This document shows, piece after piece, positions 3,612 through 57,075 of a stretch of 64,000 bases of DNA (position 1 is the stretch's first letter; the number at the start of each line of letters is the position of its first letter). Under the pieces are notes generated by a model. It was not told the DNA's origin, did no database searches, and saw only the letters and a list, made by a program, of their open reading frames with translations. The translations under genes were made by a program, and so were the position numbers. The stretch is from Eledone cirrhosa (taxonomy: Eukaryota), in NCBI GenBank assembly GCA_964016885.1, contig OZ024741.1:105276001-105340000 (forward strand), in the 5' to 3' direction.

Positions 3612-3870
3612 TGTATATATATATATATATATAGTTTTGCGTGGTTTTTTATATGAAATCGTGTGTCGAAACAAATATTGTTATACTTGGGGAGGGTCAT
3701 ATTTGTGTAATAATATTGCCAGAATTAATAACAGAACACACTCACTGTTTGGTTGGTTTTCGCTTCTGTGTCTTTGATATCGGTTAATTTAATTTATTCG
3801 GTCCTCAATGTTACCATTGACTGACCAACGGTCAAAAATACAGATACAATATAGACACAAACACATATAT

Positions 3871-3924
3871 ATAGTCTAACAAAGTTCTTTCGTTGCACAT
3901 CTGCAACATCGTCAGTGGTGCTAT
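3871..3924 (-). ncRNA. Hammerhead ribozyme (type I, minimal stem III) in PLE tail
   Basis: CUGACGA-U-GUUGCA-gaug-UGCAAC-GAAA-GAAC-UU. Confidence 0.75.
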
Positions 3925-4223
3925 TATGTTTCCTCCCGTTGTATCGTATGCTTACGCCATCTTTATTTAGTCTGTTTATTTATTTATTTATTTGTTTATT
4001 TTTTTGTCTTGTCTGCGCATGCGTTTGGGTTTGTGTATAGTGTTTTGTTTGATGTGTGTTCGTGTTTGGGTGACTGTGTATTGGTTATTGTATTCTATCT
4101 TAGTTTATTAGTGTGTGTTTATATGTGTTTGTTGTTATTGTGCTTCTGTATGTATTTATTTATTTATTTATTTATACTTCTCTTAGGTCAGTGTTGTTTG
4201 TTTGGGTGTTGTTGTTATTCCAT

Positions 4224-5648
4224 TCATTTTTTTCTGTTTAGCCTTGGCCTTCTAAGTTCTATTTCGCTGGCCTCTCTGATTTGCCTATCTGCTGGGTCAT
4301 TTCTATGTTTAGATATTATTCTAATTTCTATGTTGTCTATGTTACCGTCGTGTTGTTGTCTGGCATGTTCGTATAGTACTGAACCGTTTTTTCGTTCTTT
4401 TAGTTCCCACCAGTGATGGTCTATCCTTTCACCTATGCTACGAGCTGTCTCGCCTATGTATGTTGTTGTCATGTTTCTGCAAGTACCCTCTGTACATCTT
4501 ATGCTATAGACTACGTTTCTAGTTTTACAGTTTATCTGGGGGTTTACTTTACATATGATACATTTCCTATTAGTACAGTGGGTTTTCTTAAAAGAGTAGG
4601 TTTTGCTGATCAGGGATTTTATGGTGGTTCCTGGCTTTTCTACCACCTTAATCTTTAAGTGGGTCTTTCTCGGGGCCTTTCTACACTGGTTAGCTAATTT
4701 CCCTCCAGGGGTAGCGTCCACAAACATGACACTCTGGTATCTCTGGTTGTCGTACCATGAGGTGGCTTTCTCTATCTTATGTCTAGTCCTATCTAAGCTT
4801 TTCCATGATTTGCTCCTGTATAATGGGCAAATTCCTTTCATGTCCAGTTCTATGAGTGTCTTATACTTCTCCGTGGCTCCTTCGTATACTCTGATTCTGT
4901 CTCTTTGGTTGTAGCCATAGAACTGCATGCGGTTGATGAAGTGTTGGATGTGTCTTTCCATTTCTGTTGGGTCGCACATGCGGGACACGTTCTTCATTAC
5001 TCGTACCAAGTCTGCGATCAGAATATTAAACTTAGCACTACTGAGTTTTTGAGTATCATTTTTGAGTAGCATTGCTGAGTTTTTGAGTATCAGGTATTTG
5101 GAGGCCATGGGTTTAGCATAGTGTGAGTGGAGAATTTGGGCTCTCTCGTCTATAGTGTTAATCCAGAGTTCCGTGTCTAATACAGGTAGTCTATTGTTAG
5201 GGTGTTTGGAAGGGTAGTCGATAGTTACAGTTATACTCTGGTGTATGTAATTAGCTATCTGCTGGATGCTTTCCATTGTGCTACGTTCTAAATAAAACTT
5301 GTTAGTGCTCTCTTGTGGGGATGTCCTTATTACTATAATGATGTCGTCTACGTAACGAGAGTACATGATGAGGTCTATGGAGCTCTCATCAAGGAGATCT
5401 TTGAGTCTCATTTCCCACCATACCATAAAAGGGTTGGCAACGTCACCAGCTATGCTGACGCCAATGGCTGCTTCCTCATTTTGGGCGTAGATCTTCTCGT
5501 TGAATTTGAATATGTGGCCCTTTAGGGTAGTTTTGATACTAGCCCCTATTGCATGTGCGACCATTTTTCTTACCTGATCATTGTTTTGGGGGATCCGTAT
5601 AGCTTTGGTCCACCCAATCCATCTTTCCATGGGAGTCTTTTTTGCCAT
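4224..5648 (-). pseudogene. PLE RT C-terminal half + GIY-YIG endonuclease (474 aa fragment)
   Basis: YSRYVDD, CxxxxCxxC linker, VVY..YIGETAR. Separated from the upstream RT (5757-6586) by a stop and a frameshift. Confidence 0.9.
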
Positions 5649-7857
5649 TGAGGTTATGGTGAGGAGTCTACCTCTTATAGGTCTACTAGGGCAGAGGGGG
5701 GGTATACCCCTTATGGGTCTACTGGGGCAGAAACGTCTAAGGTCATGGCTGTCTAGTTAGTTAGTGTCGTAAGTAAGTCTAAGTAGGAGGCCCAGTTCGT
5801 CTGTATCGACGTCGCAGAACTCCACCTCACAGTCAATGATCACCTCCACACATTTTTCCACAGCAAAATCAATGTTAATGGATGGGTACAGTGATACCAC
5901 ATCCATACTGCTTATTATGCAGTTGGATAGGTTCCTGTTTTTGTTGCACTCACTGATTCTGCTGAGGAGGTCCTCTGTACTGTCACATACATCTGGGGAC
6001 ATCTTGATTATGGGGCGTATAACCATTGAGAGGAAATAGGAGATCCTGTACTTGCTAGCTATATTAGCTCCGCATACGGGTCTTGTTGGTGGTCCTGTTG
6101 TCGGGTCGTCGACTGTCTTGTGGTCTTTGCATACAAGGGTGGTATGCCATTGTTAGACGCCTGGAAGTTGTTGGCAGTGCGTCTGCTTGGCTTTAGGATG
6201 TCGGTCCACATCATGATGTGAGCGTTGAGGATTTTCTCTCTCCCATCATGTATTTGCTGTGTAATTTCGCTCGTGTTGGTGATGTGGGGTTGCATAGCCT
6301 TGATGTAGTTCGGCATGCTACCTATTGACATCCTACCAGACTTATCCGTGGGTAGACATACTACCTCACCATCCATTGTGCGTTGCTTGAGGCTAACCAA
6401 GCCTTCTACAGTTTTCCTCCCAAGTTGTTGGACCTCTGGTCTGCTTTGTCTCTTAGTAAACCGGTCTACTATTTGTCTAATCTTATTTCTAGCTATGATG
6501 AACTGTGCCTCTGTCTCGTCATCTATTTGTCGTGGTATGCAAACCCTTTTATTAAAGGGTAACCTTGTAGGATAGATATTACCCATCTTATATGTTTTGT
6601 CAGCTGGGTTGAAGAATAGTTTCTCTAAGGGGTTGTCATTATATCTATCGTCGTAGTTGTGTGCGTTGCTATTATTGTTATTATGGTGGTTGTTGTTGTT
6701 GTTCCTATCATTAACATTATTATTATTGTTATGATTGCTAGATGTATTGTTGCTGTGATTGTTATATGTATTGTTGTTGTTTTCTCCACCGTTATTGTTG
6801 TTGTTATTGTTGTTATTGTTGTTATTGTTGTTCTACCATTGTGGTTGTTACTTTTATTATGTTTCTTGTTTTTGTGTGTTGTTGTGTCTATCATTAATGT
6901 TGCTACATATATAATTTCTATTATTACCACTGTGGTTGTTGTTGTTGTTACTCGTATTGTTACCGTTATTACTACTGTGGTCGCTGCTGCTGTGTCTGTA
7001 GTTAATGTTTCTATTATTATTATTATTATTATTGTGGTTGTTGTTGTTGTTCTGTCTATCGTTAATATTATTACCATTATTACTATTTCTCACTCTCCTG
7101 CTATTGTTATTGTTATGACTATTACTATTATAGCTGCTATTTCTATACTCAGAGTTATTTTTTATATTACTACTACCGTTATTGTTGTTGTTGTTGTCCG
7201 TATAGTTGTTGTTGTTGTTTACTTTTGCATTCCAACGTATTTTTGTGAAACACTTTTCCAGCTTCGTTTCCCACCACTCCGTTTCTCACCACACCAAACG
7301 AGAGGGATGAACTCATGAGCGTCATTCGACGTGAAACGAAATTCGCCCGAAACGAATGCAATAGGCATTTCAATAAGAAATTAGAATGGATGAATAAGAA
7401 AAAACTAGAAGAAAGAAAAGTAGAATATTCTCAAAAATACCCAGATGACATCAACAATATCCGTATGACTGATGTAGAACTACTGGAAGAATTTACCAAT
7501 GACCACACAGTAAATATTTATGGGAACACTTTAATCAGTGAACAAGAACAACAAATTCTGCAGCTACCACCAAAATTTGCTATCTACAAAAAGATTAACC
7601 CTATCGAGTGCAAAACGGAGCTGGAAAAGTGTTTCACAAAAATACGTTGGAATGCAAAAGTAAACAACAACAACTATACGGACAACAACAACAATAATAA
7701 CGATAGTAGTAATATAAACAATAACTCTGAGTATAGAAATAACAGCTATAATAGTAATAGTCATAACAATAGCAATAGCAGGAGAGTGAGAAATAGTAAT
7801 AATGGTAATAATATTAACGATAGACAGAACAACAACAACAACAACCACAATAATAAT

Positions 7858-8025
7858 TGTTTCTACTTTAGGCACAAGGCCAGCAATTACCCGGTACATT
7901 ACTGGTACTTTATTTTATCGACCCGGTAAGGATGAAGGCAAAGTTAACTCAGACTGTAAAGGGACGTAACTATGCTAGAAAGCATAGCGTCCAACCCTCT
8001 ACCGATTCTGCCAATTCACCGCCCT
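7858..8025 (-). mobile_element. tRNA-derived SINE inserted in the PLE right arm, with TSD
   Basis: 17-bp TSD acaaccacaataataat (7841-7857 / 8026-8042). Core ttcatcctt..gggtcgataaaataaagtaccag recurs at 19445, 47800, 51040 and 63230. Confidence 0.85.
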
Positions 8026-8474
8026 ACAACCACAATAATAATAATAATAGAAACATTAACTACAGACACAGCAGCAGCGACCACAGTAGTAATAACGGTA
8101 ACAATACGAGTAACAACAACAACAACCACAGTGGTAATAATAGAAATTATATATGTAGCAACATTAATGATAGACACAACAACACACAAAAACAAGAAAC
8201 ATAATAAAAGTAACAACCACAATGGTAGAACAACAATAACAACAATAACAACAATAACAACAACAATAACGGTGGAGAAAACAACAACAATACATATAAC
8301 AATCACAGCAACAATACATCTAGCAATCATAACAATAATAATAATGCTAATGATAGGAACAACAACAACAACCACCATAATAACAATAATAGAAACACAC
8401 ACAACTACGACGATAGATATAATGACAACCCCTTAAAGAAACTATTCTTCAACCCAGCTGACAAAACATATAAA

Positions 8475-10879
8475 ATGACTAATATCTATCCTACGAGGTT
8501 ACCCTTTAATAAGAGGGTTTGCATACCACAACAAATAGATGACGAGACAGAGGCACAGTTCATCATAGCTAGAAATAAGATTAGACAAATAGTAGACCGG
8601 TTTACTAAGAGACAGAGCAGACCAGAGGTCCAACAACTTGGGAGGAAACCTGTAGAAGGCTTGGTTAGCCTCAAGCAGCGCACAATGGATGGTGAGGTAG
8701 TATGTCTACCCACGGATAAGTCTGGTAGGATGTCAATAGACAGCATGCCGAACTACATCAAGGCTATGCAACCCCACATCACCAACACGAGCGAAATTGC
8801 ACAGCAAATACATGATGGGAGAGAGAAAATCCTCAACGCTCACATCATGATGTGGACCGACATCCTAAAGCCAAGCAGACGCACTGCCAACAACTTCCAG
8901 GCGTCTAACAATGGCATACCACCCTTGTATGGGCTCCGCAAAGACCACAAGATAGTCGACGACCCGACAACAGGACCACCAACAAGACCCGTATGCGGAG
9001 CAAATATAGCTAGCAACTACAGGATCTCCTACTTCCTCTCAATGGTTATACGCCCCATAATCAAGATGTCCCCAGATGTATGTGACAGTACAGAGGACCT
9101 CCTCAGCAGAATCAGTGAGTGCAACAAAAACAAGAACCTATCCAACTGCATAATGGGAAGTATGGATGTGGTATCACTGTATCCATCCATTAACATTGAT
9201 TTTGTTGTGGAAAAATGTGTGGAGGTGATCATTGAGTGTGAGGTGGAGTTCTGCGACGTCGACACAGACGAACTGGGCCTTCTACTTAGACTTACCTACG
9301 ACACTAACTAACTAGACTGCCATGACCTTAGACGTTTCTGCCCCAGTAGGCCCATAAGGGGTATACCCCCCCCCCCACCACCACCACCACCACCATAACC
9401 TCAACGGCAAAAAAGACTCCCATGGGAAGGTGGATTGGGTGGACCAAAGCTATACGGATCCCCCAAAACAATGATCAGGTAAGAAAAATGGTCGCACATG
9501 CAATAGGGGCTAGTATCAAAACTACCCTAAAGGGCCACATATTCAAATTCAACGAGAAGATCTACGCCCAAAATGAGGAAGCAGCCATTGGCGTCAGCAT
9601 AGCTGGTGACGTTGCCAACCCTTTTATGGTATGGTGGGAAATGAGACTCAAAGATCTCCTTGATGAGAGCTCCATAGACCTCATCATGTACTCTCGTTAC
9701 GTAGACGACATCATTATAGTAATAAGGACATCCCCACAAGAGAGCACTAACAAGTTTTATTTAGAACGTAGCACAATGGAAAGCATCCAGCAGATAGCTA
9801 ATTACATACACCAGAGTATAACTGTAACTATCGACTACCCTTCCAAACACCCTAACAATAGACTACCTGTATTAGACACGGAACTCTGGATTAACACTAT
9901 AGACGAGAGAGCCCAAATTCTCCACTCACACTATGCTAAACCCATGGCCTCCAAATACCTGATACTCAAAAACTCAGCAATGCTACTCAAAAATGATACT
10001 CAAAACCTCAGTAGTGCTAAGTTTAATATTCTGATCGCAGACTTGGTACGAGTGATGAAGAACGTGTCCCGCATGTGCGACCCAACAGAAATGGAAAGAC
10101 ACATCCAACACTTCATCAACCGCATGCAGTTCTATGGCTACAACCAAAGAGACAGAATCAGAGTATACGAAGGAGCCACGGAGAAGTATAAGACACTCAT
10201 AGAACTGGACATGAAAGGAATTTGCCCATTATACAGGAGCAAATCATGGAAAAGCTTAGATAGGACTAGACATAAGATAGAGAAAGCCACCTCATGGTAC
10301 GACAACCAGAGATACCAGAGTGTCATGTTTGTGGACGCTACCCCTGGAGGGAAATTAGCTAACCAGTGTAGAAAGGCCCTGAGAAAGACCCACTTAAAGA
10401 TTACGGTGGTAGAAAAGCCAGGAACCACCATAAAATCCCTGATCAGCAAAACCTACTCTTTTAAGAAAACCCACTGTACTAATAGGAAATGTATCATATG
10501 TAAAGTAAACCCCCAGATAAACTGTAAAACTAGAAACGTAGTCTATAGCATAAGATGTACAGAGGGTACTTGCAGAAACATGACAACAACATACATAGGC
10601 GAGACAGCTCGTAGCATAGGTGAAAGGATAGACCATCACTGGGGGGAACTAAAAGGACGAAAAAACGGTTCAGTACTATACGAACATGCCAGACAACAAC
10701 ACGACGGTAACATAGACATCATAGAAATTAGAATAATATCTAAACATAGAAATGACCCAACAGATAGGCAAATCAGAGAGGCCAGCGAAATAGAACTTAG
10801 AAGGCCAAGGCTAAACAGAAAAAAGGAATGGAATAACAACAACACCCAAACAAACAACACTGACCTAAGAGAAGTATAA
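8475..10879 (+). pseudogene. PLE RT + GIY-YIG polyprotein, interrupted
   Basis: ORFs 8475-9311 (TDKSG, LYGLRKDHK, RPVC, SMDVVSLYPSI) and 9422-10879 (YVDD, GIY-YIG). TAA stop at 9309-9311. Confidence 0.9.
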
Positions 10880-11121
10880 ATGAATAAATAAATAAATACA
10901 TACAGAAGCACAATAACAACAAACACATATAAACACACACTAATAAACTAAGATAGAATACAATAACCAATACACAGTCACCCAAACACGAACACACATC
11001 AAACAAAACACTATACACACACGCAAACGCATGCGCAGAGAAGACAAAAAATAAACAAATAAATAAATAAACAGACTAAATAAAGATGGCGTAAGCATAC
11101 AATACAACGGGAGTAAACATA

Positions 11122-11175
11122 ATAGCACCACTGACGATGTTGCAGATGTGCAACGAAAGAACTTTGTTAGACTAT
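11122..11175 (+). ncRNA. Hammerhead ribozyme in PLE tail
   Basis: CUGACGA-U-GUUGCA-gaug-UGCAAC-GAAA-GAAC-UU. Same layout with compensatory stem changes at 40214-40256. Confidence 0.75.
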
Positions 11176-11349
11176 ATATATATGTGTTTGTGTCTATATT
11201 GTATCTGTATTTTTGACCGTTGGTCAGTCAATGGTAACATTGAGGACCGAATAAATTAAATTAACCGATATAAAAGACACAGAAGCGAAAACCAACCAAA
11301 CAGTGAGTGTGTTCTGTTATTAATTCTGGCAATATTATTACACAAATAT

Positions 11350-11382
<33 letters not shown>

Positions 11383-13686: not shown

Positions 13687-16600
13687 AGTCAGTCAACGCG
13701 ATCAGGCGTTGGAGACTATTCATTAAATTTAAGATGAATACTATCTCCGACAGTAATGCCACAACTACCAGTCATATTGAATAACTGGATATTCTTCTAA
13801 CTATATCCACTGAAGACACCTTTTAATCGAATTCGTAGAGATATCCGACTAAATACATAATCCATTTTACAAGGATCCGCTACAAACGGCATGGTTGAAC
13901 AAAACATCAACAACAACAACATCAGTGGAATATCGAAGAAAAACGAGAAAGTAAACAAAATTTATTCAGTTGTAGCTACAGAAGAAACCGAAATTATAAA
14001 TCGCATTTCTCTCGGATTTGCGAACTTAATGATGATTTATTTAATTGTTATAAAATGGCAAAAAACAATCCCTCCATTGGCTATATGAACAGAATGAAGC
14101 TACGCTGGGACGAAATACACCCAGAGCTAAATTAGTTCACAGCGAAACAAGCGACGCTTGTTGAACGTAAAAATAAGATAAATATTATTAATTGTAAGTC
14201 CCCCAGAACAAACATGGAATCAACAACACGTGCTACAGGTCGCCATGCTACTAGACTTCCTAGCAGACAGGTTGAACAGTGCCTTGAAACAACTATGCCT
14301 GTAAGAAACTTGACACCACCTGTACCATCTAAGTCTACCTCGAATGCTGGGGAAAACACTATCGATAATAATAATAATCGAAGAAATTTTACACCACGTG
14401 TACCATCCGAGTCTACCTCGACTGTTGTGGAAAATACTATCGATAATGATAATAATCAAAAGTATAAACAATTGAAAAATTCCCTCAACGAAATCTTCCA
14501 GAAAGAAATTCATTCATGTATAAACATTTCTCTTGCTGAACGTATTAAAACAACAATATTTAATTTAAAAAAAAAAAAAAAATAATGAAATATTACGTGT
14601 TGTTGACGAAATAAGGGATGAATATTTACGACGGATAAAAACCCCGACATTTTGGCAAATCAACGCCTGTTTATATGCCTTAGCAACAACAGTGAAGCAT
14701 TATCTTGGTGATAGCAGAGATATTAACAAGAACAAAACACCACCAAAAATACCATCATATATAACTAAAATAGAAAAAAAAGATTGCTGACCTACGAAAA
14801 ACCATAGGATAGACAATGCTCCTTACATGCAAACAAACACAAAAAAACTTCACTCCTCACCAACAAAGAGTGAAAAATAAAATAGAGATGATGTTTGGTA
14901 ACAGTAGAACCAGAACTCTTCAATATAAGCTGATCACCCTCAAACAAGAATAGAGAGCTGTTAGCGAAAAACGCCGATACCTGAAGAAGGTAGATGAAAG
15001 AAAAGTGTTTAATAAAAGATTCAGACGAAACCAAACATCAGTCTATAGAGATATGAAGAACAAAATAATAAGTGTCACTGAGACCCCAGCTCAGAAAGAC
15101 ATAGACTCCTTTTGGAGACAAATATGGGGTGAAAAGAAGAATTTCAACCAAGATGCAGTCTGGCTAAAAGAAATCCAAAAGAACTATTGCTCCTACACTA
15201 CAACAAAAACATACGAAATAAGTGAGGGTACCCTTGAGACTGATAGGAAAACTCCAAGATAAGAAAACACCGGGGAGAGACATGATTGTCAGCTACTGGT
15301 ACAAAAAAACTGATATTCTATCGGAGGTATCTTACCGACCTCTACCAACAAGTTCTTAATGGAGATACACTTATACCAGAATGGTTGACATTAGCACAAA
15401 CATTACTCGTCCCCAAGAACAAATACACCCACCTGACAAAAAACTACCGACCCATTTCATGCCAGAACCTAATGTATAAGATGTATACAGCATGCCTGAA
15501 CCTATTCCTCCAAGATCACTGTGAAAATAATAACATCATCACAGATGAACAAGCAGCTGGAAAGAAAGGGATTTGGGGATGTACTGAACAACTCCTCATC
15601 AACAAAACTGTGATGTAGGAGGTGGGACAACTTAGGAGAAATATGGCTACAGTCTGGCTGGACTACAGGAAAGCTTTCGATTCTGTTCCCCACTCTTGGA
15701 TGATAGAGGCCCTCCGACTTGCTAAAGTCCCAGACATTATTATCAGAGCCTTAGAGAAGCTGTCTTCTTCTTGGGCTACTATCCTAAAGTTAAAGACAGG
15801 GAAGGAGGACTCTATTTTCACTGATAAAATAAAATATCGTAGGGGTATATTTCAGGGAGACAGTCTCTCTGTGATATTATTCATCCTGTCATTAAACTCC
15901 TTGTCCTTTCTGCTCAAGAAATGTGAAGGATACATCATTGGCTCACAGGAGAACATAATTTCTTTGTGGATGATCTGAAACTCTATGCCAAGAACATGGA
16001 TGGGATGAAGAAAATTCTCGACCTGGTTACAACATTCTCAAAGGATATAGGAATGGAGTTTGGCCAAGATAAATGCTCATATACGACTGTAAAGCGGGGA
16101 AAAACAACAACACAATCTAGCAATATTTGTATCAATGGCCTAGCTGTTTCACCAATATCTGATGAGGACTGTTACAGATACCTGGGGATAGATGAGAACA
16201 TATCCTATAATGGTATCTGTAATAAGGAACGCGTAACCAGCGAATACTACACCCGATTAAGAAAGATCTGGTCATCGGAACTCTCTGCTCAAAACAAAAC
16301 AGTGGCTCACAATGTGTTTGCTGTGCCTGTCCTAACACCAACTTTTGGAATGCTCAATTGGACGATAGACGAAATCCGAGCGATTGATGTTAGAACTCGA
16401 AAAATACTAAACAACACCGGAAACTTCCACATCAACAGTGACATAAACCGCCTTTACTTGAAACGTAAGCAAGGAGGCAGAGGCCTAACATCAGACCAGA
16501 CAGCATTTGAATGTCGCATCATATCCCTCCGACATCTACGAACCTCAAAGCGTAGGAGCCCGTCTCTCGAGCAAGTCTGTCTGCTTGAAACAGATAAGAT

Positions 16601-17756
16601 CATGAGAGTTGGGAAGGAACTCCTCGAGAGGTATTGCCTGTGTGATAATCAAAAACTCACACTCAGGGAAGTCGCTCAGCAGTATCGCAGTGAATCCATG
16701 GATGAAAAACTTCATGCTTATCAGCAAAAAATCATGCATGGATATGTTGCCAGGAAGCTCCAGAGTGAGAGTAATATAGATAAAGAAAGTAGTCTATCTT
16801 GGACCAACAACCGCTATATTGGCTCCCGCTTTGAAGGATACGCTTTTGCAATCCAAGAACAGGAAATCAACACGAAATACGTGATTCACAAAAGAGATAG
16901 GGATGCAAGCAAAATATCTAGATGTGATAACAAGTGCAGACTCTGCAGAATTAACATCAAAGATGTCACCCATGTCATAAGCAGCTGTCCAAAGATGTCA
17001 TCGCGGTACTATCTACCTATGAGACATGATGTAGTGGCCAAAACACTGTACAATGCAATCTGTAGAAAAGATAGCCGCGATAATAAACACATTAAAAGCT
17101 ACAGCAATGTGGAAGACATCCACGTACATAATATGAAAGAGAACTGGTGGAATGTTCCAGTAAAAACCCCAATAAAATGCAAGCATAACAGACCAGATAT
17201 TATGATATGGGACAGGGAAAAGAAGGCATGCACAGTAGTGGAAGCTAGCTGCCCAGCAGATGCCAATATAATATCAAAGATTAGCGAAAAGGAGAATATT
17301 TATGCAGAACTGATGAGAAATCCTCAGATACTCCACCCTGATTATACCTTCAGATTTATACCTGTGATTATTGGGGCACTGTGATATGTTAGTAACTGCC
17401 TCAATACAAATCTTGAGAAGCTGGGCTTCACAGGAACAGAAAGAACACAACTAGTTAGGAAATTACAAGTACAATCCATTAATGGAACAGTAAAAATATA
17501 TAAAACATTCCCAAACTGTTGCATCTAATAACTGCATATACACATGTACAGATACTAAGCATATACACATGCACACATACAACTCAAAATATACACATCC
17601 ACATATACAATAACATCCATATCTACACATGCAGACATGCATACATATCTACCTAGTTGATGTTGTGTAAATTCCAATGAGAGAGTCTTGTGTCTATGTT
17701 AGAAACCGACTCTCTCTCTATTGGCAAAAATTTGTGAAATTATAAAACCAGAAGAA
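13687..17756 (+). mobile_element. R4/Dong-like RLE non-LTR retrotransposon, near full length, degenerate
   Basis: RT (YRPISC, DYRKAFDSVPH, FQGDSLS, MDDLK), CCHC (CRLC..H..C), RHD and RPD..E endonuclease motifs. Multiple stops and frameshifts. (CATA)n on both sides. Confidence 0.9.
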
Positions 17757-18194
17757 CATACATACATACATATGATATATTGAGAGAGGTGGGCAAGAGG
17801 AGAAGGGGGAGGAGGGGTAAGTGGAATGTTGTGATGGTTGTCCAAGTCATAACAACGTTGAATTGAAATTCATGCTGTAGTTTTGTGTCTGCCTTTCTTT
17901 TTGTATGTTTATTATACATGAACATATCGTACACCCCTCTATCATGAACGATTCTATGTTAGTGTTACTGCTAATATATATTTGTATTCAGTCAGTAGAG
18001 GAAAGGCAATGACCACAGCTCTTTTCACGTCTCTCAGCGGTCGTGAGAGGTAAGGAGCACATTGTCCTCAAATTATCGACCTTAGCTGAATCATTGCAGA
18101 AGAATCTTTGTACTTTGTTAAAGAAATGTCAACAAATTTTTGTCAAAATAGATAATGGATTGCTTAAAATATAGAAGAGGAGCGGATCTAACAA

Positions 18195-21001: not shown

Positions 21002-21085
<84 letters not shown>

Positions 21086-21517
21086 TGCATATATATATAA
21101 TATATATACATATATATATATACATATAATATATATACATACATATATATATAATATATATACATACATATATATATAATATATATACATACATATATAT
21201 ATAATATATATACATATATATATAATATATATACATATATATATAATATATATACATACATATATATATAATATATATACATACATATATATATATACAT
21301 ATATATATAATATATATACATACATATATATATAATATATATACATACATATATATATAATATATATACATACATATATAATATATATACATACATATAT
21401 ATATAATATATATACATACATATATATATAATATATATACATACATATATATATGATATATATACATACATATATATATGATATATATATATACATATAT
21501 ATATGATATATATATAT

Positions 21518-21578
<61 letters not shown>

Positions 21579-21659
21579 TATATATATATACACATATACA
21601 TATATATATATACACATATACATATATATATATACACATATACATATATATATATACAC

Positions 21660-21748
<89 letters not shown>
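21002..21748. repeat. Compound TA / TACA microsatellite
   Basis: Direct inspection. Confidence 0.95.
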
Positions 21749-21751
<3 letters not shown>

Positions 21752-22314
21752 GAAGTTAGTAAGCCCGTGGGTACTAAGTACCCCTGGAAATACATAGGTT
21801 GTCTATGATTTAAGGTTGTTCTATGGTATCAATTTGACATACCAGAACTATAATATTAATATAAGCAGAACAAGCAAAATTCAACCAATTTTTTAAAATA
21901 AATTAAAAAATATAATTTAAATATTTACCTATTCATATGGCTCTTACCGATCGGTTTCGCCTTGTAAAACACCAGAGACCCAATGGATTTCCAATGGAAA
22001 ATCAAGGCTCATCAGAGAAGCATTTTCCCTTCCTAGGGCTAAAGACCCAGGAACGATAAAATATATTATCTGCCAGCTAGCACAGATCCAAAAGGCCGAA
22101 AAATGACCTGTACGTGAACTACCCGAGGTGAAAGCGGGAAAAACATAGACGTGTTGTCTATCTCGTTACTAAAAATAGCAGCTAAATAGAAACAACATGA
22201 TTGTTCTCAACAAATGGAGGGTGATAGAAGAAGTTAGTAAGCCCGTGGGTACATTAAATTATATTTTTTAATTTATTTTAAAAAATTGGTTGAATTTTGC
22301 TTGTTCTGCTTATA

Positions 22315-22321
<7 letters not shown>
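21746..22321 (-). mobile_element. Retrozyme-like insert: 478-nt monomer + terminal direct repeat + inverted arm
   Basis: Direct repeat 21746-21774 / 22224-22252. Inverted repeat 21853-21920 / 22254-22321. One HHR, no ORF, (TA)n flanks. Confidence 0.8.
21941..22020 (-). ncRNA. Hammerhead ribozyme, canonical core
   Basis: UUCU-CUGAUGA-GCCUUG-long loop-CAAGGC-GAAA-CCGAUCGG-UA-AGAG. Confidence 0.88.
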
Positions 22322-22367
<46 letters not shown>

Positions 22368-22435
22368 AGTTAAGAACTCAGGGTAGTCTCTTACAATTAA
22401 ATAGCTCTAAGAAAAAAGCTTTTCCGAGCCGTACA

Positions 22436-22885
22436 ATATAATTGAATAAACAAGAGAGATGAACACTAATATAAACATACGTGTGTTCAAATCGTAAGGA
22501 CCAAAATTTGCTAGAGTGGAAAAATACTAACTACAGCAATATAGTTTGTTATCCTTAACTTTAAATATTAAATTAAGAAAAATAAAGAAAAATAACAGAC
22601 CTATATTGGGCAAAAATGCCTGGTAACAACTAGACAGTGTTGGAGAACTTCACTTAACAAGTCGTTGCGAACAGTCTCCAACACTGTCTAGTTGTTACCA
22701 GGCATTTTTGCCCAATATAGGTCTGTTATTTTTCTTTATTTTTCTTAATTTAATATTTAAAGTTAAGGATAACAAACTATATTGCTGTAGTTAGTATTTT
22801 TCCACTCTAGCAAATTTTGGTCCTTACGATTTGAACACACGTATGTTTATATTAGTGTTCATCTCTCTTGTTTATTCAATTATAT
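22436..22885. repeat. Long inverted repeat, 211-bp arms, 28-bp spacer
   Basis: 22436-22646 is the reverse complement of 22675-22885; no mismatch noticed. Confidence 0.92.
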
Positions 22886-25564: not shown

Positions 25565-25571
<7 letters not shown>

Positions 25572-25792
25572 AGATTCAGGACCCCGACGGCTGAGCCCTG
25601 GCCGTTTCGACAGCTAGATCCGAACTAAACCACCAGTATACCGGTGGATTAGTTCGGATCTAGCTGTAGAAACGGTCGGTACTCAGCCGTCGGGGTCCTG
25701 AATCTTTTCATATTACCCACTCTACTACCCTAAGTATCGAGTACTCTGGTGGGTTATGTTATGGTCCACCTGATATTTTACCACAACCTATC
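25565..25792. mobile_element. Family A fold-back insert
   Basis: Inverted repeat about 25565-25634 / 25643-25712. Tail tacccactctactaccctaagtat is the reverse complement of 196-219. Confidence 0.75.
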
Positions 25793-25884: not shown

Positions 25885-25956
25885 GCAAGCGGCGGGAGGG
25901 ACCGTCCTGACGAAGGCCAGTTAAGCCTGAAATACATAGACGGTTGTCCCGCTTGC
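25885..25956 (+). ncRNA. Hammerhead ribozyme, canonical core, extended stem I
   Basis: ACCGUC-CUGACGA-AGGC-caguuaa-GCCU-GAAA-UACA-UA-GACGGU; distal gcaagc..ggga / uccc.gcuugc pairing. Confidence 0.88.
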
Positions 25957-28117: not shown

Positions 28118-28120
<3 letters not shown>

Positions 28121-28330
28121 TTTTTTCCGTTGTGTTGTAATATAAATATTACACACAGTAGATTATCAGCTCACGTAGAGTTTGCTCGACGGTTCCAGTT
28201 GTAGTTCCAAAAGTAATCCGGAGAAAAATAGAAAGATTTGAATGGATACAGTTTAGTTGAAAGGAATTTATTGACACGTGTTTCTATAACAGTTACATAA
28301 CCTAAAACAGCTATCTACAAACTTTTAGTT

Positions 28331-29746
28331 ATGCAGACATTCAATATTTCAATAGATAGACCCTCTAACTTTGACATAACAATGGGCTCTAACGATTCGG
28401 CGGAAATAACTGATATTGTGGGGTTATTTATCGCCTTTAGACTCCAGGAAAAATTCAGCAATCTCCACGGCGGAATATACCGCGACGATGTTCTCCTCCT
28501 AGCTAAAAACCTTAATAACCAAAAACTAGAAAAACTACGCAAAGATATAAGAAAACTACTACTCGAAATAGGACTAACTATAACATATGAATACAACCTT
28601 AAAGTAGTTAACTTCCTGGATGTCACACTCAATTTAAACTCTGGTTTGATTAAACCGTTTCATAAATTGAATGAAAATCTCAAATACGTAAATGTTGGGT
28701 CTAACCACCCCATCTCTATAATTAAATCTATCCCTAAAAATATTTCCCTTAGAATCTCGGGTCTATCTTCTAACATACAAGTATTTAAGGAACACGCCGA
28801 GTACTACGATAACGCCCTTAGTAAAGCAGGCTACCTCAACAAAATAGAGTACATAGATGGGAACAATCAAAACACCCAAAATAAATCCCACATAGGTAGA
28901 TATAATAACACAACACCAAACCACACTTACTACCATAGTATGCACACCAGTAAACCAACAAACAAAACTAATAGAAAGCGATGCAAAGAGTACTTATGGT
29001 ATAACCCCGAATACAATAGCTCCATTAGTACAAATTTACCAGTACTCTTCTTTAAAATAATTAAAAGACATTTTCCCACATCACACAAATACCACAAAAT
29101 CCTAAACCCTACCACTATAAGACTGTCATACTCTACAGCGTTAAACCTTGAACAACACATAAAAAAGATCAATACTAGAAGGTTAAACGAAAACACTAAG
29201 AACTTAAGTACAAAGAACCCCAAAAAAACAGTAGACAATACACTACAGAACATAAATAAACCACACCTAAGTTCGTCCGCAATACTACTCCAGAGAAAAC
29301 CCAACGTACACAACTGTAACTGCACCTATCCTGACAACTGCCCCCTCGGCAATAACTGCCTGGAAAAAAATATTATTTATAAGTGTACCATTAAATCCGG
29401 AGGCAACGAGTGGTATTACGTGGGATCAACGGCAACATCGTTTAAATCTCGATTGTATAGGCATTCTTACTCAATAAAACACCAGAGCCAAAGAAATGTA
29501 ACAACTTTAGCAGAAAAAGCTTGGACGCTCAGGGATAGCAATCAAAAGTTTACCCTAAAATGGGAAAAATTAGCTAAAACCCAGAGCTTTTCCAGGAGCC
29601 AAAATTTCTGCAAATTGTGTAATCTTGAGATTTATTACATAATCACACACAAGAAGAAACTGCTGAATAACAGAATTGAACGAACATTATTCTGCCGTCA
29701 CAGAACTAAAACCCTTTTTTCCCACTACAAGCAGAATATTACATAA
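28331..29746 (+). CDS. PLE RT (motifs B-E, thumb) + GIY-YIG endonuclease, open but 5'-truncated
   Basis: FDITMGSNDSAE, GIYRDD, VNFLDVTL, CNC..CPL..C, IIYKC..YVGST..FKSR. The first residues come from the inverted arm. Confidence 0.88.
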   Translation: MQTFNISIDRPSNFDITMGSNDSAEITDIVGLFIAFRLQEKFSNLHGGIYRDDVLLLAKNLNNQKLEKLRKDIRKLLLEIGLTITYEYNLKVVNFLDVTLNLNSGLIKPFHKLNENLKYVNVGSNHPISIIKSIPKNISLRISGLSSNIQVFKEHAEYYDNALSKAGYLNKIEYIDGNNQNTQNKSHIGRYNNTTPNHTYYHSMHTSKPTNKTNRKRCKEYLWYNPEYNSSISTNLPVLFFKIIKRHFPTSHKYHKILNPTTIRLSYSTALNLEQHIKKINTRRLNENTKNLSTKNPKKTVDNTLQNINKPHLSSSAILLQRKPNVHNCNCTYPDNCPLGNNCLEKNIIYKCTIKSGGNEWYYVGSTATSFKSRLYRHSYSIKHQSQRNVTTLAEKAWTLRDSNQKFTLKWEKLAKTQSFSRSQNFCKLCNLEIYYIITHKKKLLNNRIERTLFCRHRTKTLFSHYKQNIT

Positions 29747-30015
29747 AAGAGGGACATCCCCCAACTATATAAACCTTAATCTAGTTAGAAAAATATAAAA
29801 ACAATCTCTTCTCAACATATATTAATAACCTTAAATTACCATACTAATAATGAAAAGATATGCTGATGAGAATAGGTACAAATATGCGATAATGAATGTG
29901 TCTAAAAACGTCCATAAGTATGTATATATATGTGAAAATGTATATAAATAAGTAAATATATATATATGTTTGATGTGTATAGTTAGATGTAAGTGTATTC
30001 ATGTATTAAAGTGCT

Positions 30016-30048
<33 letters not shown>

Positions 30049-30071
30049 ATATGTGTGTATATATGTATGTG

Positions 30072-30102
<31 letters not shown>

Positions 30103-30697
30103 GTATATGTATATATGTATATATATATATGTGTATGTATGTATGTGTATATGGATGTGTATGTATGTGTATGTGTGTACACATGGACTAGAGTATGTAT
30201 GTATATATGTGTGTGTCTATACGTGTGTATATATAAAGATAAGTTGAGTATGAAAATGTATACACATGAGCGCGTATGTATGTACATGAATACATGTGTG
30301 TATATATATGTGTATGCATGTGTATATATATGTAAGTATGAATATGTGAATTGTGAGTATATGTATTTTGTAGAGGTGTGCAAATATATTTGTGTGTGAA
30401 TGCGTGGGTGAAAGAATACGTACACTTGAAAGAAAAATTTAAGTCTGAATGTTAAGTGCAAACACAAAACCAACCACGCATATCTTTACTATCTCTAATC
30501 CTTCTATAGATTTAGAAAAAATAACCAATAATATATTCTATAAAAAATGTCAAAACAACAGATGGGAATCTAATTAATCACTGCCACCAAGAATTCTCAT
30601 TGCTATCGAAAAACCACTCCTTCAACTATTCTTCTAACAACTTCACCCCTTCCTCCTAATATTCTCTATAAAAACTAAATAGGTCCTCAGTAATATT

Positions 30698-30741
30698 ATT
30701 CTGATGAAATGACAGTAAACAATAACATTGAAATATTGAAT
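30698..30741 (+). ncRNA. Hammerhead-like motif in PLE tail
   Basis: AUU-CUGAUGA-AAUG-loop-CAUU-GAAA-UAUUG-AAU; cleavage triplet imperfect. TATAAAA about 30 nt upstream. Confidence 0.55.
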
Positions 30742-30846
30742 GTCTGCATAACTAAAAGTTTGTAGATAGCTGTTTTAGGTTATGTAACTGTTATAGAAAC
30801 ACGTGTCAATAAATTCCTTTCAACTAAACTGTATCCATTCAAATCT

Positions 30847-30883
<37 letters not shown>

Positions 30884-33535: not shown

Positions 33536-34146
33536 TAAAATACAATATGTTGAAAAGGTAACACACTAGAGAGAGATAATGCGCCATCAATAAAACAGGG
33601 AAAACGACCAGTGTAAGGAATCTATAACCTATGAAAGGCAGGGTAGACACACAATAATTAAAAATATAAATTAAAATGTATATACGCACCTCTATAACTA
33701 TATAAGACACGCGTACAAATCCAAAGAGATCTGTTTCGCCAGGAAGTTGTTGACTGAAATGGAATAGCCTATGGTTCATCAGCGCGTGCAAGGCTATACA
33801 TTCCAGACAACTCTAAGAGAATCTAAAGCGACCGTCCAGCTACACGCGGGAGAGAGATGTCACAGCGTGTTTAGGGCAGTGAACCAGTGGTATTTGACGA
33901 GCTGCTAGAAATGGCAGCCCAAAAACCACTCAGAGAAGTGTACTCAACCAAACAGTGAGAGAGGAAAGACTGTTATAAGGAGCGAAATATCGCGATAAAT
34001 TAACGGAGCCATAGACTCTCGTTATTCCCTGTCAATAATGTACTCAAAGGAGAAGGAATCCTGAGCTCTTTAAAATACAATATGTTGAAAAGGTAACACA
34101 CGTTATTGACAGGGAATAACGAGAGTCTATGGCTCCGTTAATTTAT

Positions 34147-34154
<8 letters not shown>
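33536..34154 (-). mobile_element. Retrozyme-like insert: 535-nt monomer + terminal direct repeat + inverted arm
   Basis: 31-bp direct repeat 33536-33566 / 34071-34101. Inverted repeat 33987-34038 / 34103-34154. One HHR, (TA)n flanks. Confidence 0.82.
33708..33788 (-). ncRNA. Type I hammerhead ribozyme with full stem III
   Basis: CACGCG-CUGAUGA-aCCA-30-nt loop-UGGc-GAAA-CAGAUC-ucuuug-GAUUUG-UA-CGCGUG. Confidence 0.88.
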
Positions 34155-36836: not shown

Positions 36837-37194
36837 TCGCCGCCATTCCTGTTATGAGATATATTATTTTATATTATTAATGTATGTCCATACACGGGAC
36901 AAAAAGCGCTACCTAAGGTTTTAAGGTCCGATTTTTTTCATTATATGTTTTTTTTTTATTTGTATATGAATGGAATGGAATGGATCTTCGTCGATTAAGA
37001 CGATGAAGGTTCTAGTTGTTCGATCAACGGAACAGACTGCTTGTAAAATTAACCTGCAATAGTTTTTTGTTCTCACATATCGAGATTAGAAACATAAGAT
37101 TGCATATTCGATATTTAGTCAAACATAAAGAAAAAAAAGTAGCATTGCAAAAGACTATAAATGAGAGGAAATGAAGGGAAAGGGCAAGGATTAT

Positions 37195-38508
37195 TAACCG
37201 CCTCTACCTGAAACGTAAACGGGAAGGCAGAGGCCTAACATCAGTCAAGACAACATTTGAGTATCGCATCATATCTCTCCGACAACATATACGAACCACC
37301 AAGTGTACGAAACCATCTATTGAGTAAGTCTGTTTACATGAGACAGATAAGATCATGAGAGTTGGGAAGGGGCTCCTTGAGAAATACTCCCTGCATGATA
37401 ATCAAAAACTCACACCCATGGAAATTGCCCAGCAATACTGTAGTGAATCCATGGATGAAAAACTGCATGTTTATCAGCAAAAAACCATGCATGGGTATGT
37501 TGCCAAGAGGCTCCAGAGTGAGAGTAATATAGATAAGCAAAATAATCTATCTTGGACTAACAACCGCTATATCGGCTCTCACTTTGAAGGATATGCTTTT
37601 GCAATCCAAGAAATACAAAATACCTGGTTCACAAAAGAGATAGGGATGCAGGCAAAACACCTACATGTGACAACAAATGCAGACTCTGCAGAATTAACAT
37701 TGAAGATGTCACCATGTCATAAGCAGCTGTCCAGAAATGTCGTCACGGTGCTATCTACCTATGAAGCTTGATGTAGTAGCCAAAACACTATGCAAAGCAA
37801 TTCATAAAAAAATAGCCCCGACCATAAATATATTATAAGTCACAGCAATGTGGAAGACATATACATACCTAATATAAAAGAATACTGGTGGAATGTTCCA
37901 GTCAAACCCCCAATAAAATGCAAGCACAACAGACCAGTTATAATAATATGGGACAAGGTAAAGAAAGCCTGCACAGTAGTGAAAGTCAGCTGCCCAGCAG
38001 ATGCCAATATAATATTAAAGATTAGCGAAAAGGAAAACGTCTATGCAGAACTAATGAGGAATCTCAGATACTCCACCCTGACTATACCTTCAGATTTATA
38101 CCTGTGATTATTGGGGCACTGGGATATGTTACTAACTGCCTCAGTACAAATCTTGAGAAGCTGGGCTTCACAAAACCAGAAAGAACACGACTAGTTAGGA
38201 AGTTACAAGTACAATCCATTAATGGAACTGTAAAAATGTGTAAAACATTCCAAAAATTCTGCATGTAATAACTGCATTTACACTTATATAGATACAAAAT
38301 AAATGCACGTGTACACATTACTCAACGCATACAGATCCACACATACATTAACATCTATACCTGCACACACATGCATATATGCAGACAAGCAGACATATCT
38401 ACCTAGTTGATGTTGTTTAAATTCCAATGAGAGAGTCTTGCATCTATGTTGGAAACCGCCTCTGTCTCTCTATTGGTAAAAATTTATAAAATTATAAAAC
38501 CAGAAGAA
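37195..38508 (+). mobile_element. 5'-truncated R4/Dong-like LINE (same family as 13687-17756)
   Basis: Aligns to 16445-17756; same 3' end followed by (CATA)n. Confidence 0.9.
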
Positions 38509-39022
38509 CATACATACATACATACATACGTAGATACATACGTACATACGTATATACCTGCATCCATATAGGCAATCTCATCGCTGGCTATGACAACCTG
38601 CTATTGAGAGATAAGCTGCAATGAAATGATTTTAAGCGATGTTTATGACATATTCAGAAAAGAACTTTTATTATGTGACACCCACCTCAATCCTATAGCT
38701 TCCTGCAAGTCTCTTTCAGACTTTCTACAAGATAGATTTCTTAGCTTATACGCGGATGTGTTTTCTTTTTAGTAATCCTTCACATAATATCCTTTCTCTA
38801 TTATGATTGCATTTGGATCCATGGATGTATTTTCCAACCAATTTTTTTCCTTTTTTCTACTTTTCTTTGTCTCCTTATTATATCCTCTTTCTGGCGCTAC
38901 AACTCCCCTCTGTTTCTATTTCCAGGCTCTATTTCTAATATGTGTCCCGTCTAAATCGTTTATCCACTCAATCTTATCCTCCCCCTCTTTCTCTATCTCT
39001 TTCCCCTCTCTCTCTCTCTATA

Positions 39023-42504: not shown

Positions 42505-45420
42505 CTATAGCATCTCTTTGTAGACGATATTGCGTGTCATCCCTTGAGGAGTGTAAGCAAAAAGTCCATTCCTGCTCCCTACGCGGGAACAGGCAACATA
42601 AAGTTGGCCATGGGAGAAGCATGGCTCCCCCAAATGGATGCCCGCCACCGACAATGTTTGCCCTTGTGACTTGTTAATGGACATGGCAAAACATGGTCTC
42701 ACCGGAAATTGAGATCGCCGGAAATCGAACGGGATATCTGATGCCGAGGGGAAAAGGTTCATCTTTGGAATAAAAACATTCTCCCCTCTCCCGCACCCCG
42801 TTACAATGGTAGCCTCAATCAAGTGGGTGTCAGTGACTTGACCACCATGCGAGTACCGTTGCACTGCTTTGGTGGACGCAAGTTCCTTATTAGCATAATG
42901 GGACAGCCAACCCTAAGCTTAAGAATGTGAGGTGAGAGCCCTGGGGGCTCAAGGGAATTTAATAACTCAACCGGATAATTAACGATATCGTCGGGGTCTG
43001 ACGTCCTGTCGATAGATTTGAAGATGTGTTCTTTACCGGGAATTTTCTCAATCAGCTGCTCGTTAATAAAATTAACCATGGTATTTTTCGGAGCAAGGAT
43101 GGCTCTTTCGCTGAGCCAATCGAAGTTTTTAAAGTTAGATGAGACATTAGGAAAAACTGCTTCCCAAAGGTCAGAAGGGCTGCTCACAATGTTGCACAGG
43201 GAGTCGATTGCTATGCTGCCATTGTCATCCGCAGGGACCTTGCCCTCACCAAGTGCTAAAATATTCTGAGCAAATGCTGCAGACATGTTGTCACCATGTA
43301 AATGAGCACACATATTTGTGCTCAGATACAAACTCTTCACCTGGATCCACAACATGGACGACTTAAGACAGGCACGCACTTCATCAGCTCTTGTCCCTTT
43401 GGGGATGACAGGCAGCGTTTGCCGAAAATCCCCTGATAGCAGAAGGGTTACGCCACCCATATGAGCCGTAGAATCCCTAATGTCTTTCAGGGTCCTGTCC
43501 AATGCCTCAAGGACACCCTTGTGTGCCATTGTGCACTCATCCCAAACAATGAGGCAACATTTTTTGAGAACCAGAGCTTCGTGTGAACTCTTGCTGATAT
43601 TGCATGCTGGTGTCTCAGTTTTTACTAAATCCAAGGGGAGTTTAAAGGTTGAATGGGCTGTCCTGCCTCCCGGCAGCAAAGTAGCAGCGATCCCGGACGA
43701 TGCAACGGCCAACGCAATTTTTTTCTCCTGAAGAATCTTAGCGAGAATCAATTTCGTTACATAAGTTTTTCGCATACCCACGGGAGCATCGAGAAAGTAA
43801 ATACCCTCAGTCTGATTTTGAACCGCGTCAATGATAGTTAAATAGGCCAACCTTTGGTCCGACAGAAGTTTGGGCTCACTTTCCTCTAAGTATTGGGAAA
43901 GAGATTCGATGTTATATGCTGTTTCCCGCAACAAATCCGGGGCCAACGTGTTAGCTTCCTCTCTGACGGTTGACGGCAAGCCATACGTCGCCAACTCACT
44001 CCCACCCATGTCGAGGAGGGCGTCCTCGATATCAATGAGTGCCCTGTTGTAGATAATGTCGCTGTAACCAACTTCCACTGAAGTATACTGCAGATGAGCC
44101 AGGCGCAGGAAGTCCTCAGACATGACGTCTCTGTACTTGACCCATAAAGATTTGGGATCACCCAATTCACACTTTTGAAACAAAATAGCAAAGAGTTCCC
44201 GTATACCTTTAGGTGATTTCAACAAAGCACCCTCTGCTAAAGTGGAATCCCATTGCGAATCATCTTCCAAAAGACCACGCTTAAAGCAGGCTTCCCGTAC
44301 GTGTCACATATTTCTCCATCAACAGTTTTGAGGTCCTGAAAACTTTGTGGGCCTACAACTTCATGCAGAAGAAGGCGGAGATGAAAGCACTCATGCTGAC
44401 TTAGGGGCACAGTGTAAACCCTTCCAAGACAGCTGTCAAATTTTACACCAGGATGTCTTTCAGCAACCTGACCTGACTTTCTTCGCACCCAAGTGTTTTT
44501 CGACCATATAAAGTAGGATGGAACCTGGGAGTACACAATTGTTTGCGCAAATCATCGAACTGGCAAAGTTTCAAGAAACCCGTCAGAGTGGTCTCTTTCT
44601 GATCGGCGGCCAACTTGGCGGCGGTTTGGTCCGTAAAGTAAACCCTTTGCCCATTTTCCAAATGTACCGCAAGCTGTACGATGGCGGGGTGACGTTGGTG
44701 TAGGGGTAAACCAAATAGGCGCCAAAAAGCTTCATTGCTACTGATGTACCGCCCCGCCAGGTATTCTGTGACCTCGTCCCTGCTATTTTCAGCTTGAAAT
44801 GCGAACATTGCGGCATCAGAGCCCTTATTTACATATTTGCATATGTATTTTATCGACTTGACGGAGTTGCAAAACTCAACGTTGATGTGGGCGTTGAACA
44901 TCTTCAAGAGAAGTGGGCAGTAAGGGACCAGCCATCTATTGTCGACTTGACCTCCCCTTACTGTTGTGGTGAAGCCACCGTTCTCGGGCCGTCTCCGCCT
45001 GTACAGGGGGTACCCGTCGCCACCAGTCTGAGTCTGGTCAACAAATTTTTTGGGGTATCCCTTACTGCACGACCCCCACCCACCCCTTCAGACATGTGTG
45101 ATGCTCATTAGGACCCGACTCACACGGACCATGAATCATGTTACCTTTGACGATGTCATGTAATTCCTGGTCAGTTGCTGGGTTAGGGATTTCAGCCGAA
45201 ATGAAGCTGTCTATGGCATTTGAATTGATTTTATCAGCTAACCAAATCAAAATGTGAGCATGTGGCAGCCCTCGTTTTTGCCATTCGACGGTGAACATGT
45301 CACATTTTACAGCTCCAAATACATGACCTTTTTGATTAAAGCCATGAGTTTAGCCAGTTTCAGTCTGAACACTCTGGCAATGAGGTCATGTCTGTTCGAA
45401 TAATTTTGCCCAGGAAAAAG
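42505..45420 (-). pseudogene. Helitron Rep/Pif1 helicase, frameshifted
   Basis: HUH motif VEWQKRGLPHAHIL, YICKY, damaged Walker A, IVWDE, GDFRQTLPV, SINKSQGQTL, HGQLYVACSR, spread over 5 or more ORFs. Confidence 0.93.

Positions 45421-55667: not shown

Positions 55668-57075
<1,408 letters not shown>

Follow-up and report, generated by a model that had tools for sequence, protein, structure and literature searches.

How does a short non-coding unit come to lie in a (TA)n microsatellite as one full copy, a brief overlap into the next and a truncated inverted arm, and what kind of enzyme puts it there? The question is raised by an element carrying a hammerhead ribozyme in the window, the whole 64,000-nt stretch of Eledone cirrhosa DNA analysed here. 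We read this element as a young non-LTR retrozyme, copied in trans from two fixed starts by a Hydra-type Penelope-like element (PLE), probably from circular RNA, and put the probability of this reading as a whole at roughly 0.6. The element class is already known; the advance is a mechanistic refinement, an insertion grammar that ties a retrozyme to Hydra-type PLEs.

The window copy consists of a 507-nt arm that begins at one site, S1, and a 68-nt arm that begins at another, S2 (Table 1). Positions 21746-21774 recur at 22224-22252 as a direct repeat of 29 nt (100% identity, spacing 478), and the inverted arm at 22254-22321 repeats 21853-21920 in reverse complement without a mismatch (68 nt, 100%). 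An earlier, sequence-only reading of the locus had pointed to both repeats, to (TA)n on either side (21002-21748 and 22318-22365), and to a minus-strand hammerhead with a palindromic stem III and a GUA cut site, placed by sequence at 21945/21944; all of these stand. Its 478-nt monomer is right for this copy, which is 3 nt shorter than the usual 481-nt unit of the family, and its description of the hammerhead as canonical holds for the core, whereas stem II is unusually long and Rfam gives no match.

Table 1. Parts of the window copy and the related mobile elements of the window (positions are those of the window).
Feature	Position	Strand	Remarks
Left (TA)n microsatellite, the insertion target	21002-21748	.	
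Main arm	21746-22252	-	478-nt unit plus 29 nt of the next unit; cDNA on +, predicted RNA on -
S1, distal start site	21746-21749	-	ATA (3 nt) homology with target; fixed outer end in 45/53 insertions
S1-to-S2 stretch, the 108-nt 'tail'	21749-21856	-	
S2, proximal start site	21853-21857	-	ATAT homology with target
Type I hammerhead	21937-22023	-	Stem I with a C-C mismatch
Hammerhead CUGAUGA	22015-22009	-	
Hammerhead long stem II	22008-21959	-	50-nt region
Hammerhead GAAA	21958-21955	-	
Palindromic stem III, ACCGAUCGGU	21946-21955	-	Predicted to favour a dimeric hammerhead
Predicted self-cleavage site, after GUA	21944-21945	-	From sequence only
Hydra-type distal-site motif, CUCC-N4-GUUGAG	22206-22219	-	4 nt 3' of S1 in the circular or tandem unit
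29-nt overlap, start of the second unit	22224-22252	-	
Single extra base at the arm-arm junction	22253-22253	.	
Inverted arm	22254-22321	+	Begins at S2 on the right-hand target end
Right (TA)n microsatellite	22318-22365	.	
Family B retrozyme (33.5-kb element)	33538-34150	-	535-nt unit; same two-site grammar
Family B distal motif	33943-33982	-	Split by a hairpin
PLE1, autonomous Neptune-type PLE	3634-11352		
PLE2, autonomous Hydra-type PLE	28118-30849	+	5'-truncated, with an inverted arm; one end at either of two sites, 113 nt apart

The 29-bp repeat is the overlap between successive units. As the sequence-only reading had anticipated, it is not a target-site duplication (TSD): it is unit sequence, and the length of the overlap varies from copy to copy. 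A TSD is unreadable in the window copy and in the other insertions of the family because (TA)n lies on both flanks. Judged by the same variable overlap, the terminal repeat does not represent LTRs. The unit is tandem, non-coding and low in GC; read as a circle on both strands it holds no Met-to-stop frame longer than 40 aa, and an ORF with RT plus GIY-YIG is absent from the element.

Directly to the right of the element, the same microsatellite contains another (TA)n-bounded inverted insertion (22366-22880), with arm starts offset by 75 nt. Short insertions bounded and inverted in this way also lie at 25568-25792 and 143-333, with arm offsets of 83 and 80 nt, and insertions resembling the one at 25568-25792 also occur in the flanks of two of the loci collected below (L154 and L191). 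Elsewhere the window holds Helitron-like fragments with a PIF1 helicase domain (42819-45087), a C2H2 zinc-finger array on the minus strand (55300-57135) and a non-LTR retrotransposon that matches RT weakly and is present twice, at 15927-17772 and 37193-38524, with 85% identity between the copies.

The window copy belongs to a family, A, that is both numerous and recent. Searches of the 3.0-Gb genome returned at least 2352 first-look candidates with the whole unit as query and at least 1281 with a 121-nt internal query, figures to be read as minima and not as copy numbers. In each search the 40 top-scoring candidates were scored, so young copies are over-represented in what follows. Arrays reach 7.4 units, and in 19 of the 40 insertions with a near-full unit the sequence differs from the majority letters by at most 0.8% (7.3% in the oldest). 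Two sister families were recovered, A2 (72% identical, ~525 nt, 3 loci) and A3 (477 nt, 2852 candidates). Sequencing runs X1-X4, contigs of one study, were used for variants and loose ends only.

Three observations concern the relatives themselves. Two A3 loci ~213 kb apart on contig C1, L178 and L179, have identical insertions and flanks, reflecting either a segmental duplication or an assembly duplicate, and were counted once. One A3 insertion (L152:1495-1608, the same as L076:655-765) consists of nothing but the tail: it spans S1 to S2 and is flanked by (TA)n at either end. At L159:2055-2194 lies another hammerhead family, in which stem II is comparably long and stem III nearly palindromic.

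A strict motif scan of the whole window yielded two hammerheads only, the single one of the window copy and one at 25907; the latter (25900-25950, plus strand) is a minimal type I hammerhead with a 7-bp stem I and a stem III that is nearly absent. A candidate second hammerhead of the element, on the plus strand near 21787, was rejected for want of CUGANGA. Rfam matched no hammerhead and no other ribozyme in the whole window or in the element alone; the miss is probably due to the long stem II. A search for relatives with a shorter stem II gave no matches.

Sequence variation supports a real hammerhead family with compensatory changes, as judged from an alignment of 20 sequences hand-picked from a longer list to span A, A2 and A3, with the structure taken from the window copy. 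Standard pairs fill 90.4% of 291 cells and two-sided changes occur in 28, values that none of 500 shuffles reached for either measure and that slid controls did not approach (at most 51.5% pairing), and that kinship among the 20 sequences can inflate. Two of five covariation measures were not above shuffles (41/500 and 362/500). Stem III is paired in 20/20 sequences; it is still a perfect palindrome in A2 and in locus L194 despite substitutions, and in A3 a palindrome with one central base. Across family A the core is intact in 91 of the 96 units that span the ribozyme.

The palindrome is predicted to favour a dimeric hammerhead. Folding calculations give the stem III hairpin -0.9 kcal/mol and its self-duplex -16.6 kcal/mol, and the hammerhead lies outside the minimum-energy fold of the circle, where forcing it costs 5.1 kcal/mol. 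Among animal hammerheads, a palindromic weak helix III is described as common and linked to dimeric cleavage in the accessible parts of PMC4209133 and PMC7229834. We regard it as very likely that the element is of retrozyme type.

The insertion grammar was read from 77 loci of family A, which reduce to 53 distinct insertions. An outer end falls at S1 or S2 in all 53, the two sites being 108 nt apart, and these ends nearly always abut (TA)n with 3-4 nt of homology. The same two registers appear with the internal query, which favours neither. The opposite, truncated ends vary across the whole unit, and 5' truncation, partial tandems and an inverted truncated arm are all present among the insertions. 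The copies had been described from sequence as permuted; free permutation is rejected by the fixed starts, and what varies is the truncated end.

Inverted insertions nearly always use each site once. Among the 32 insertions with an inverted piece, 30 combine S1 with S2, none pairs S1 with S1 or S2 with S2, and two are short fold-backs; under independent site choice, 30 mixed pairs have a probability of at most 9e-10. One of these, L190, was scored S1+S2 after a short arm that BLAST had missed was read directly, and L194 contains a third, older piece. The longer arm may start at either site, and the 21 single arms divide into 14 from S1 and 7 from S2. Subfamily variants made 7 of the 29 arm-arm junctions unreadable; the 22 readable ones comprise 14 with 1-6 nt of microhomology, 3 that are blunt and 5 with 1-2 extra bases. 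In DNA contigs of X1 and X2 (one study, possibly the source of the window), loose (TA)n ends occur at 21853. A module duplicated inside the unit behind each start site was considered and dropped as marginal (10/500 and 38/500 shuffles).

The rule extends to other hammerhead families, as the sequence-only reading had proposed for a shared insertion grammar. In A3 (30 loci), one arm per site holds in 8/8 inversions with both arms at a site, and in 4 more inversions one arm begins elsewhere. In family B (30 loci), it is kept in 10/10 such inversions, with 6 more head-to-head cases that have a decayed or unassigned end. This strict use of two sites suggests that a single complex, for example a dimer of the kind predicted for the Poseidon element PAc, may hold both.

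What RNA is being copied? At least one cleavage site is crossed by 69 of 83 arms, and one arm crosses seven; the template is therefore a circle or an uncut multimer and not a linear monomer. We favour a circle as the main template. Units of the same arm diverge by 0.55%, those in the two arms of an insertion by 1.4% and those of different insertions by 3.3%. In four insertions (L007, L059, L061 and L187) both arms share a variant absent from the other insertions (n = 53). Low divergence within insertions and shared private variants fit a single molecule or a single source.

The strongest competitor, in our view an unlikely one, retains the same Hydra-type two-site priming and replaces the circle by a linear, partly uncut multimer transcribed from genomic arrays, with circles a by-product or absent and the hammerhead mainly trimming 5' ends. 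The L076 insertion speaks for it: after crossing one uncut site, its arm stops exactly at a cleavage site and folds back, which is what cut linear RNA would give and counts against a single circle. Variants are also uneven among units, with a private variant in 3/3 units of one L015 arm and absent from the other, and variants in some units only of L072 and L082. The weak stem III predicts slow cutting, the autonomous PLE2 likewise yields partial tandems, and uncleaved RNA is the dominant in vitro substrate in the accessible text of PMC11167929. Set against this, units are nearly identical within an insertion, private variants are common to up to three units and to both arms, and an exact-cut end occurs in just 1 of 83 arms. 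A further look at arm ends places 6/83 within 195-204, in a region, 160-220, where ends are generally frequent; arm lengths give no clear sign of self-collision on a circle, the ends following sequence rather than turns in a distribution biased by the queries. Related animal retrozymes, moreover, accumulate mostly as circles according to the accessible part of PMC7229834.

Which enzyme primes at S1 and S2? The window itself contains two autonomous PLEs. PLE2 carries RWK, DKT and CxCx5C, marks of the Hydra clade in the portions of PMC8557442 available, where that clade is also reported to insert into (TA)n; the clade labels of PLE1 and PLE2 rest on the motifs of that paper, and Pfam named neither element. 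PLE2 returned 60552 first-look candidates, many of them 99-100% identical over the queried part, with many identical intact frames of 785 codons; the family is very young. In 20/20 opposite-strand pairs of PLE2, one arm begins at a proximal and the other at a distal position 113 nt away. These neighbouring pairs were chosen before their ends were inspected; 19 were called by script, and the remaining one, L242, ends 4 nt beyond the proximal site.

A protein search added four more Hydra-type families, bringing the genome to at least five; Hydra elements described so far come from few families. PLE2, H6, H7 and H8 have (TA)n junctions at two sites 94-135 nt apart, a range that includes the 108-nt tail of family A, and one junction only was seen in H5. 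In all five families CUCC-N-GU(U/C)GAG lies immediately 3' of the distal position. This motif occurs at the corresponding place in family A, and 5 of 3000 shuffled circles contain it anywhere.

With a two-block profile whose only input was the five Hydra-type families, the S1 position is the top match in family A (22.3 bits, 0/500 shuffles, best antisense score 9.2). Inspection of A and B had already revealed the motif when this profile was made, so the test is not fully blind. The equivalent position ranks first in A2 (23/500 shuffles) and A3 (100/500), neither being significant alone, and the distal site of family B ranks first given a long, hairpin-holding spacer of 31 nt (0/200 shuffles), against 65/500 for family B without the long spacer. 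By eye, the motif of H7 is closest to that of A. The proximal site of A lacks the CUCC found at Hydra proximal sites. The idea that the distal motif is itself a hairpin found no support, no stable one being predicted in five stretches (one of which, from L256, lay too far 3' and missed the motif).

Families A and B had been called independent and unrelated in sequence. Similarity is indeed invisible to BLAST, yet a profile of family A gives a weak alignment to B that keeps the register (3.0 bits, E 0.044; best of 200 shuffles 0.0), and both elements carry the Hydra distal-site motif, so independence was overstated. The accompanying proposal of one integration machinery fares better, with Hydra-type PLEs as its likely source, given the 20/20 rule in PLE2 and the shared distal motif. 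The hammerheads of the two families differ: that of B (33700-33785) has a 7-bp stem I and a long, non-palindromic stem III, and most of the listed copies carry a basal A-C mismatch in stem II.

Longer similarity to any candidate mobiliser was sought as well. No convincing DNA similarity links A or B to PLE1 or PLE2; a 15-nt match between B and PLE1 (E 0.001) was set aside for its orientation, opposite to priming. The family-A profile, run against ~760 kb of loci, found no autonomous relative among the matches listed, and 42 Hydra-search loci, covering the five Hydra-type families, contain no extended similarity to A.

Mobilisation by a PLE is almost as secure as the class of the element, and a Hydra-type PLE is likely. 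A Neptune-type or other Penelope-like family in this role strikes us as improbable, and it has its own evidence. PLE1 is abundant (35096 candidates), inserts in (TA)n and combines one tailed with one untailed arm in 5/5 pairs, and every Hydra family found lacks extended similarity to A. Because PLE1 shows the rule too, one arm per site is a general rule, and only spacing and motif indicate Hydra. On both counts PLE1 departs from A: its tails measure 48-65 nt against 108 in A and 94-135 in the four Hydra-type families, and it lacks the distal motif, scoring 6.9 with the Hydra-only profile, in a survey of Hydra-type and Neptune-type families. As for its own structure, PLE1 has a long inverted arm and an asparagine-rich insert, and its ends map to the opening codons of the ORF or, alternatively, 48-65 nt beyond them.

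A more radical possibility, very improbable in our judgement, is that a single generic integration machinery takes up unrelated and perhaps viroid-like circular RNAs, entering the circle at arbitrary positions. Several hammerhead families do coexist here without BLAST-level similarity, and the family A circle folds better than shuffles (z -3.5). The predicted fold is, however, branched and not rod-like, with a hammerhead on one strand only, and an exact 23-nt ribozyme pattern found no match in viral contigs, a weak test. Above all, arbitrary capture is contradicted by two registers that are fixed in 53/53 insertions and conserved in sister families, and by a Hydra motif common to A and B. Least credible of all is a satellite-like repeat that arose from orphan pseudo-LTRs and was locally amplified through unequal crossing-over, with inversions made by DNA repair in (TA)n: tandem arrays exist, the accessible text of bioRxiv 10.64898/2026.07.22.740005 discusses such a route and some uneven L082 variants fit later local exchange, but the insertions are dispersed over many contigs, each with its own (TA)n ends and fixed starts, they show variable truncation and multi-unit arms in both orientations, and no parent coding element was found among the matches listed for ~760 kb of loci and the 42 Hydra-search loci.

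Our preferred reading, a retrozyme copied by a Hydra-type PLE, builds on two studies that describe non-LTR retrozymes and propose their mobilisation by Penelope elements, PMC7229834 (Cervera and de la Pena 2020) and bioRxiv 10.64898/2026.07.22.740005 (Li, Clavereau and Pollet 2026). As in the non-LTR retrozymes of their accessible sections, the unit of family A is non-coding, tandem and low in GC, has one type I hammerhead and occurs as monomers to multimers; a weak stem III that is predicted to need dimers recalls the amphibian retrozymes described there. At 481 nt the unit exceeds the 170-400 nt given in PMC7229834 and falls inside the 51-972 of the bioRxiv study. Family A differs from them in its 50-nt stem II region and in having no TSD visible in (TA)n, and the available text of the two papers does not describe two fixed starts, inverted arms begun at one start each or a clade-specific motif.

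The Hydra clade, as set out in the accessible parts of Craig et al. 2021 (PMC8557442), shares with family A the (TA)n targets, hammerheads in the terminal region, partial tandems, an inverted truncated arm and a tail on one end. Tails of PLEs in general are given there as 30-40 bp; it is with the local Hydra-type families that A shares a tail length in the 94-135 nt range and the distal-site motif. Family A has no ORF, unlike the Hydra clade, and its unit is the whole element; it has no extended DNA similarity to the five local families. Chlamys elements such as MRC1 offer another parallel as non-autonomous, Penelope-type head-to-tail multimers, and the same paper, in the part available, has them resembling their autonomous partners at the 3' end. 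Family A, in contrast, has retained a hammerhead and has no more than a short motif in common with its likely partners. In L1 twin priming, the element RNA is copied from the two target ends and the products join head to head at microhomology, as an inversion; the position of the second site varies, and there is no overlap between the pieces. Family A differs in that neither site varies and that each of the two arms can be longer than a unit.

The closest biochemical model is PAc, a Poseidon element of the green anole (Frangieh et al. 2024, PMC11167929). In the accessible text, two internal start sites bound its tail, cleavage and extension of both strands are demonstrated in vitro, a dimer is predicted, and the in vitro template is uncleaved RNA, with initiation in the absence of homology. 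Family A likewise has two start sites bounding a tail and an AT-rich target. The PAc sites lie inside the start of the ORF in an AC-rich stem-loop and require no homology in that account, whereas those of family A are 108 nt apart, show 3-4 nt of TA homology and are accompanied by a distal motif with no stable predicted hairpin.

From these elements a plausible cycle can be assembled. Tandem copies would be transcribed on the minus strand, and hammerheads are predicted to pair through the palindromic stem III and to cut multimers into monomers. A host ligase would close the monomers into circles, and a lone circle should cut poorly. The Penelope protein would then bind near CUCC...GUUGAG and nick both (TA)n strands. 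One DNA end would prime at S1 and the other at S2, each through the 3-4 nt of TA homology seen in the insertion pattern. From there the arms extend for variable distances, through up to seven cleavage sites, and, as the junction sequences record, the two truncated ends are then joined in opposite orientation at 0-6 nt of microhomology, unless there is just one arm, which is linked to the other (TA)n end. We tentatively suggest a more specific form of this cycle, in which a protein-free RNA circle carries both loading sites and a two-headed RT complex of the Hydra clade primes the two ends of a cut (TA)n at these sites and proceeds round the circle from each.

Published support for retrozymes borrowing Penelope machinery consists, in the accessible literature, of co-occurrence, shared hammerheads and a similarity of frog pseudo-LTRs. 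Here the insertion scars themselves match Penelope: the two arms begin at separate, fixed positions whose spacing is Hydra-like, and a motif is held in common. Literature covering few subscription journals and no supplements contained no two-site or inverted retrozyme insertions and no strict rule of one arm per site; within the same coverage, Hydra elements with ~110-nt tails and a CUCC...GUUGAG motif were not found either. How the inverted arms and tails of PLEs originate is an open question according to PMC8557442, and the occurrence of one arm per site in three retrozyme families and two autonomous families constrains how these structures form. The genome holds many identical intact Hydra-type ORFs, and a 481-nt RNA together with young, intact candidate enzymes makes the system testable in vitro. 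If the two-headed complex is real, it would name the class of enzyme that moves an animal retrozyme, and one arm per site would be the general cause of the inverted-plus-tail anatomy of PLEs.
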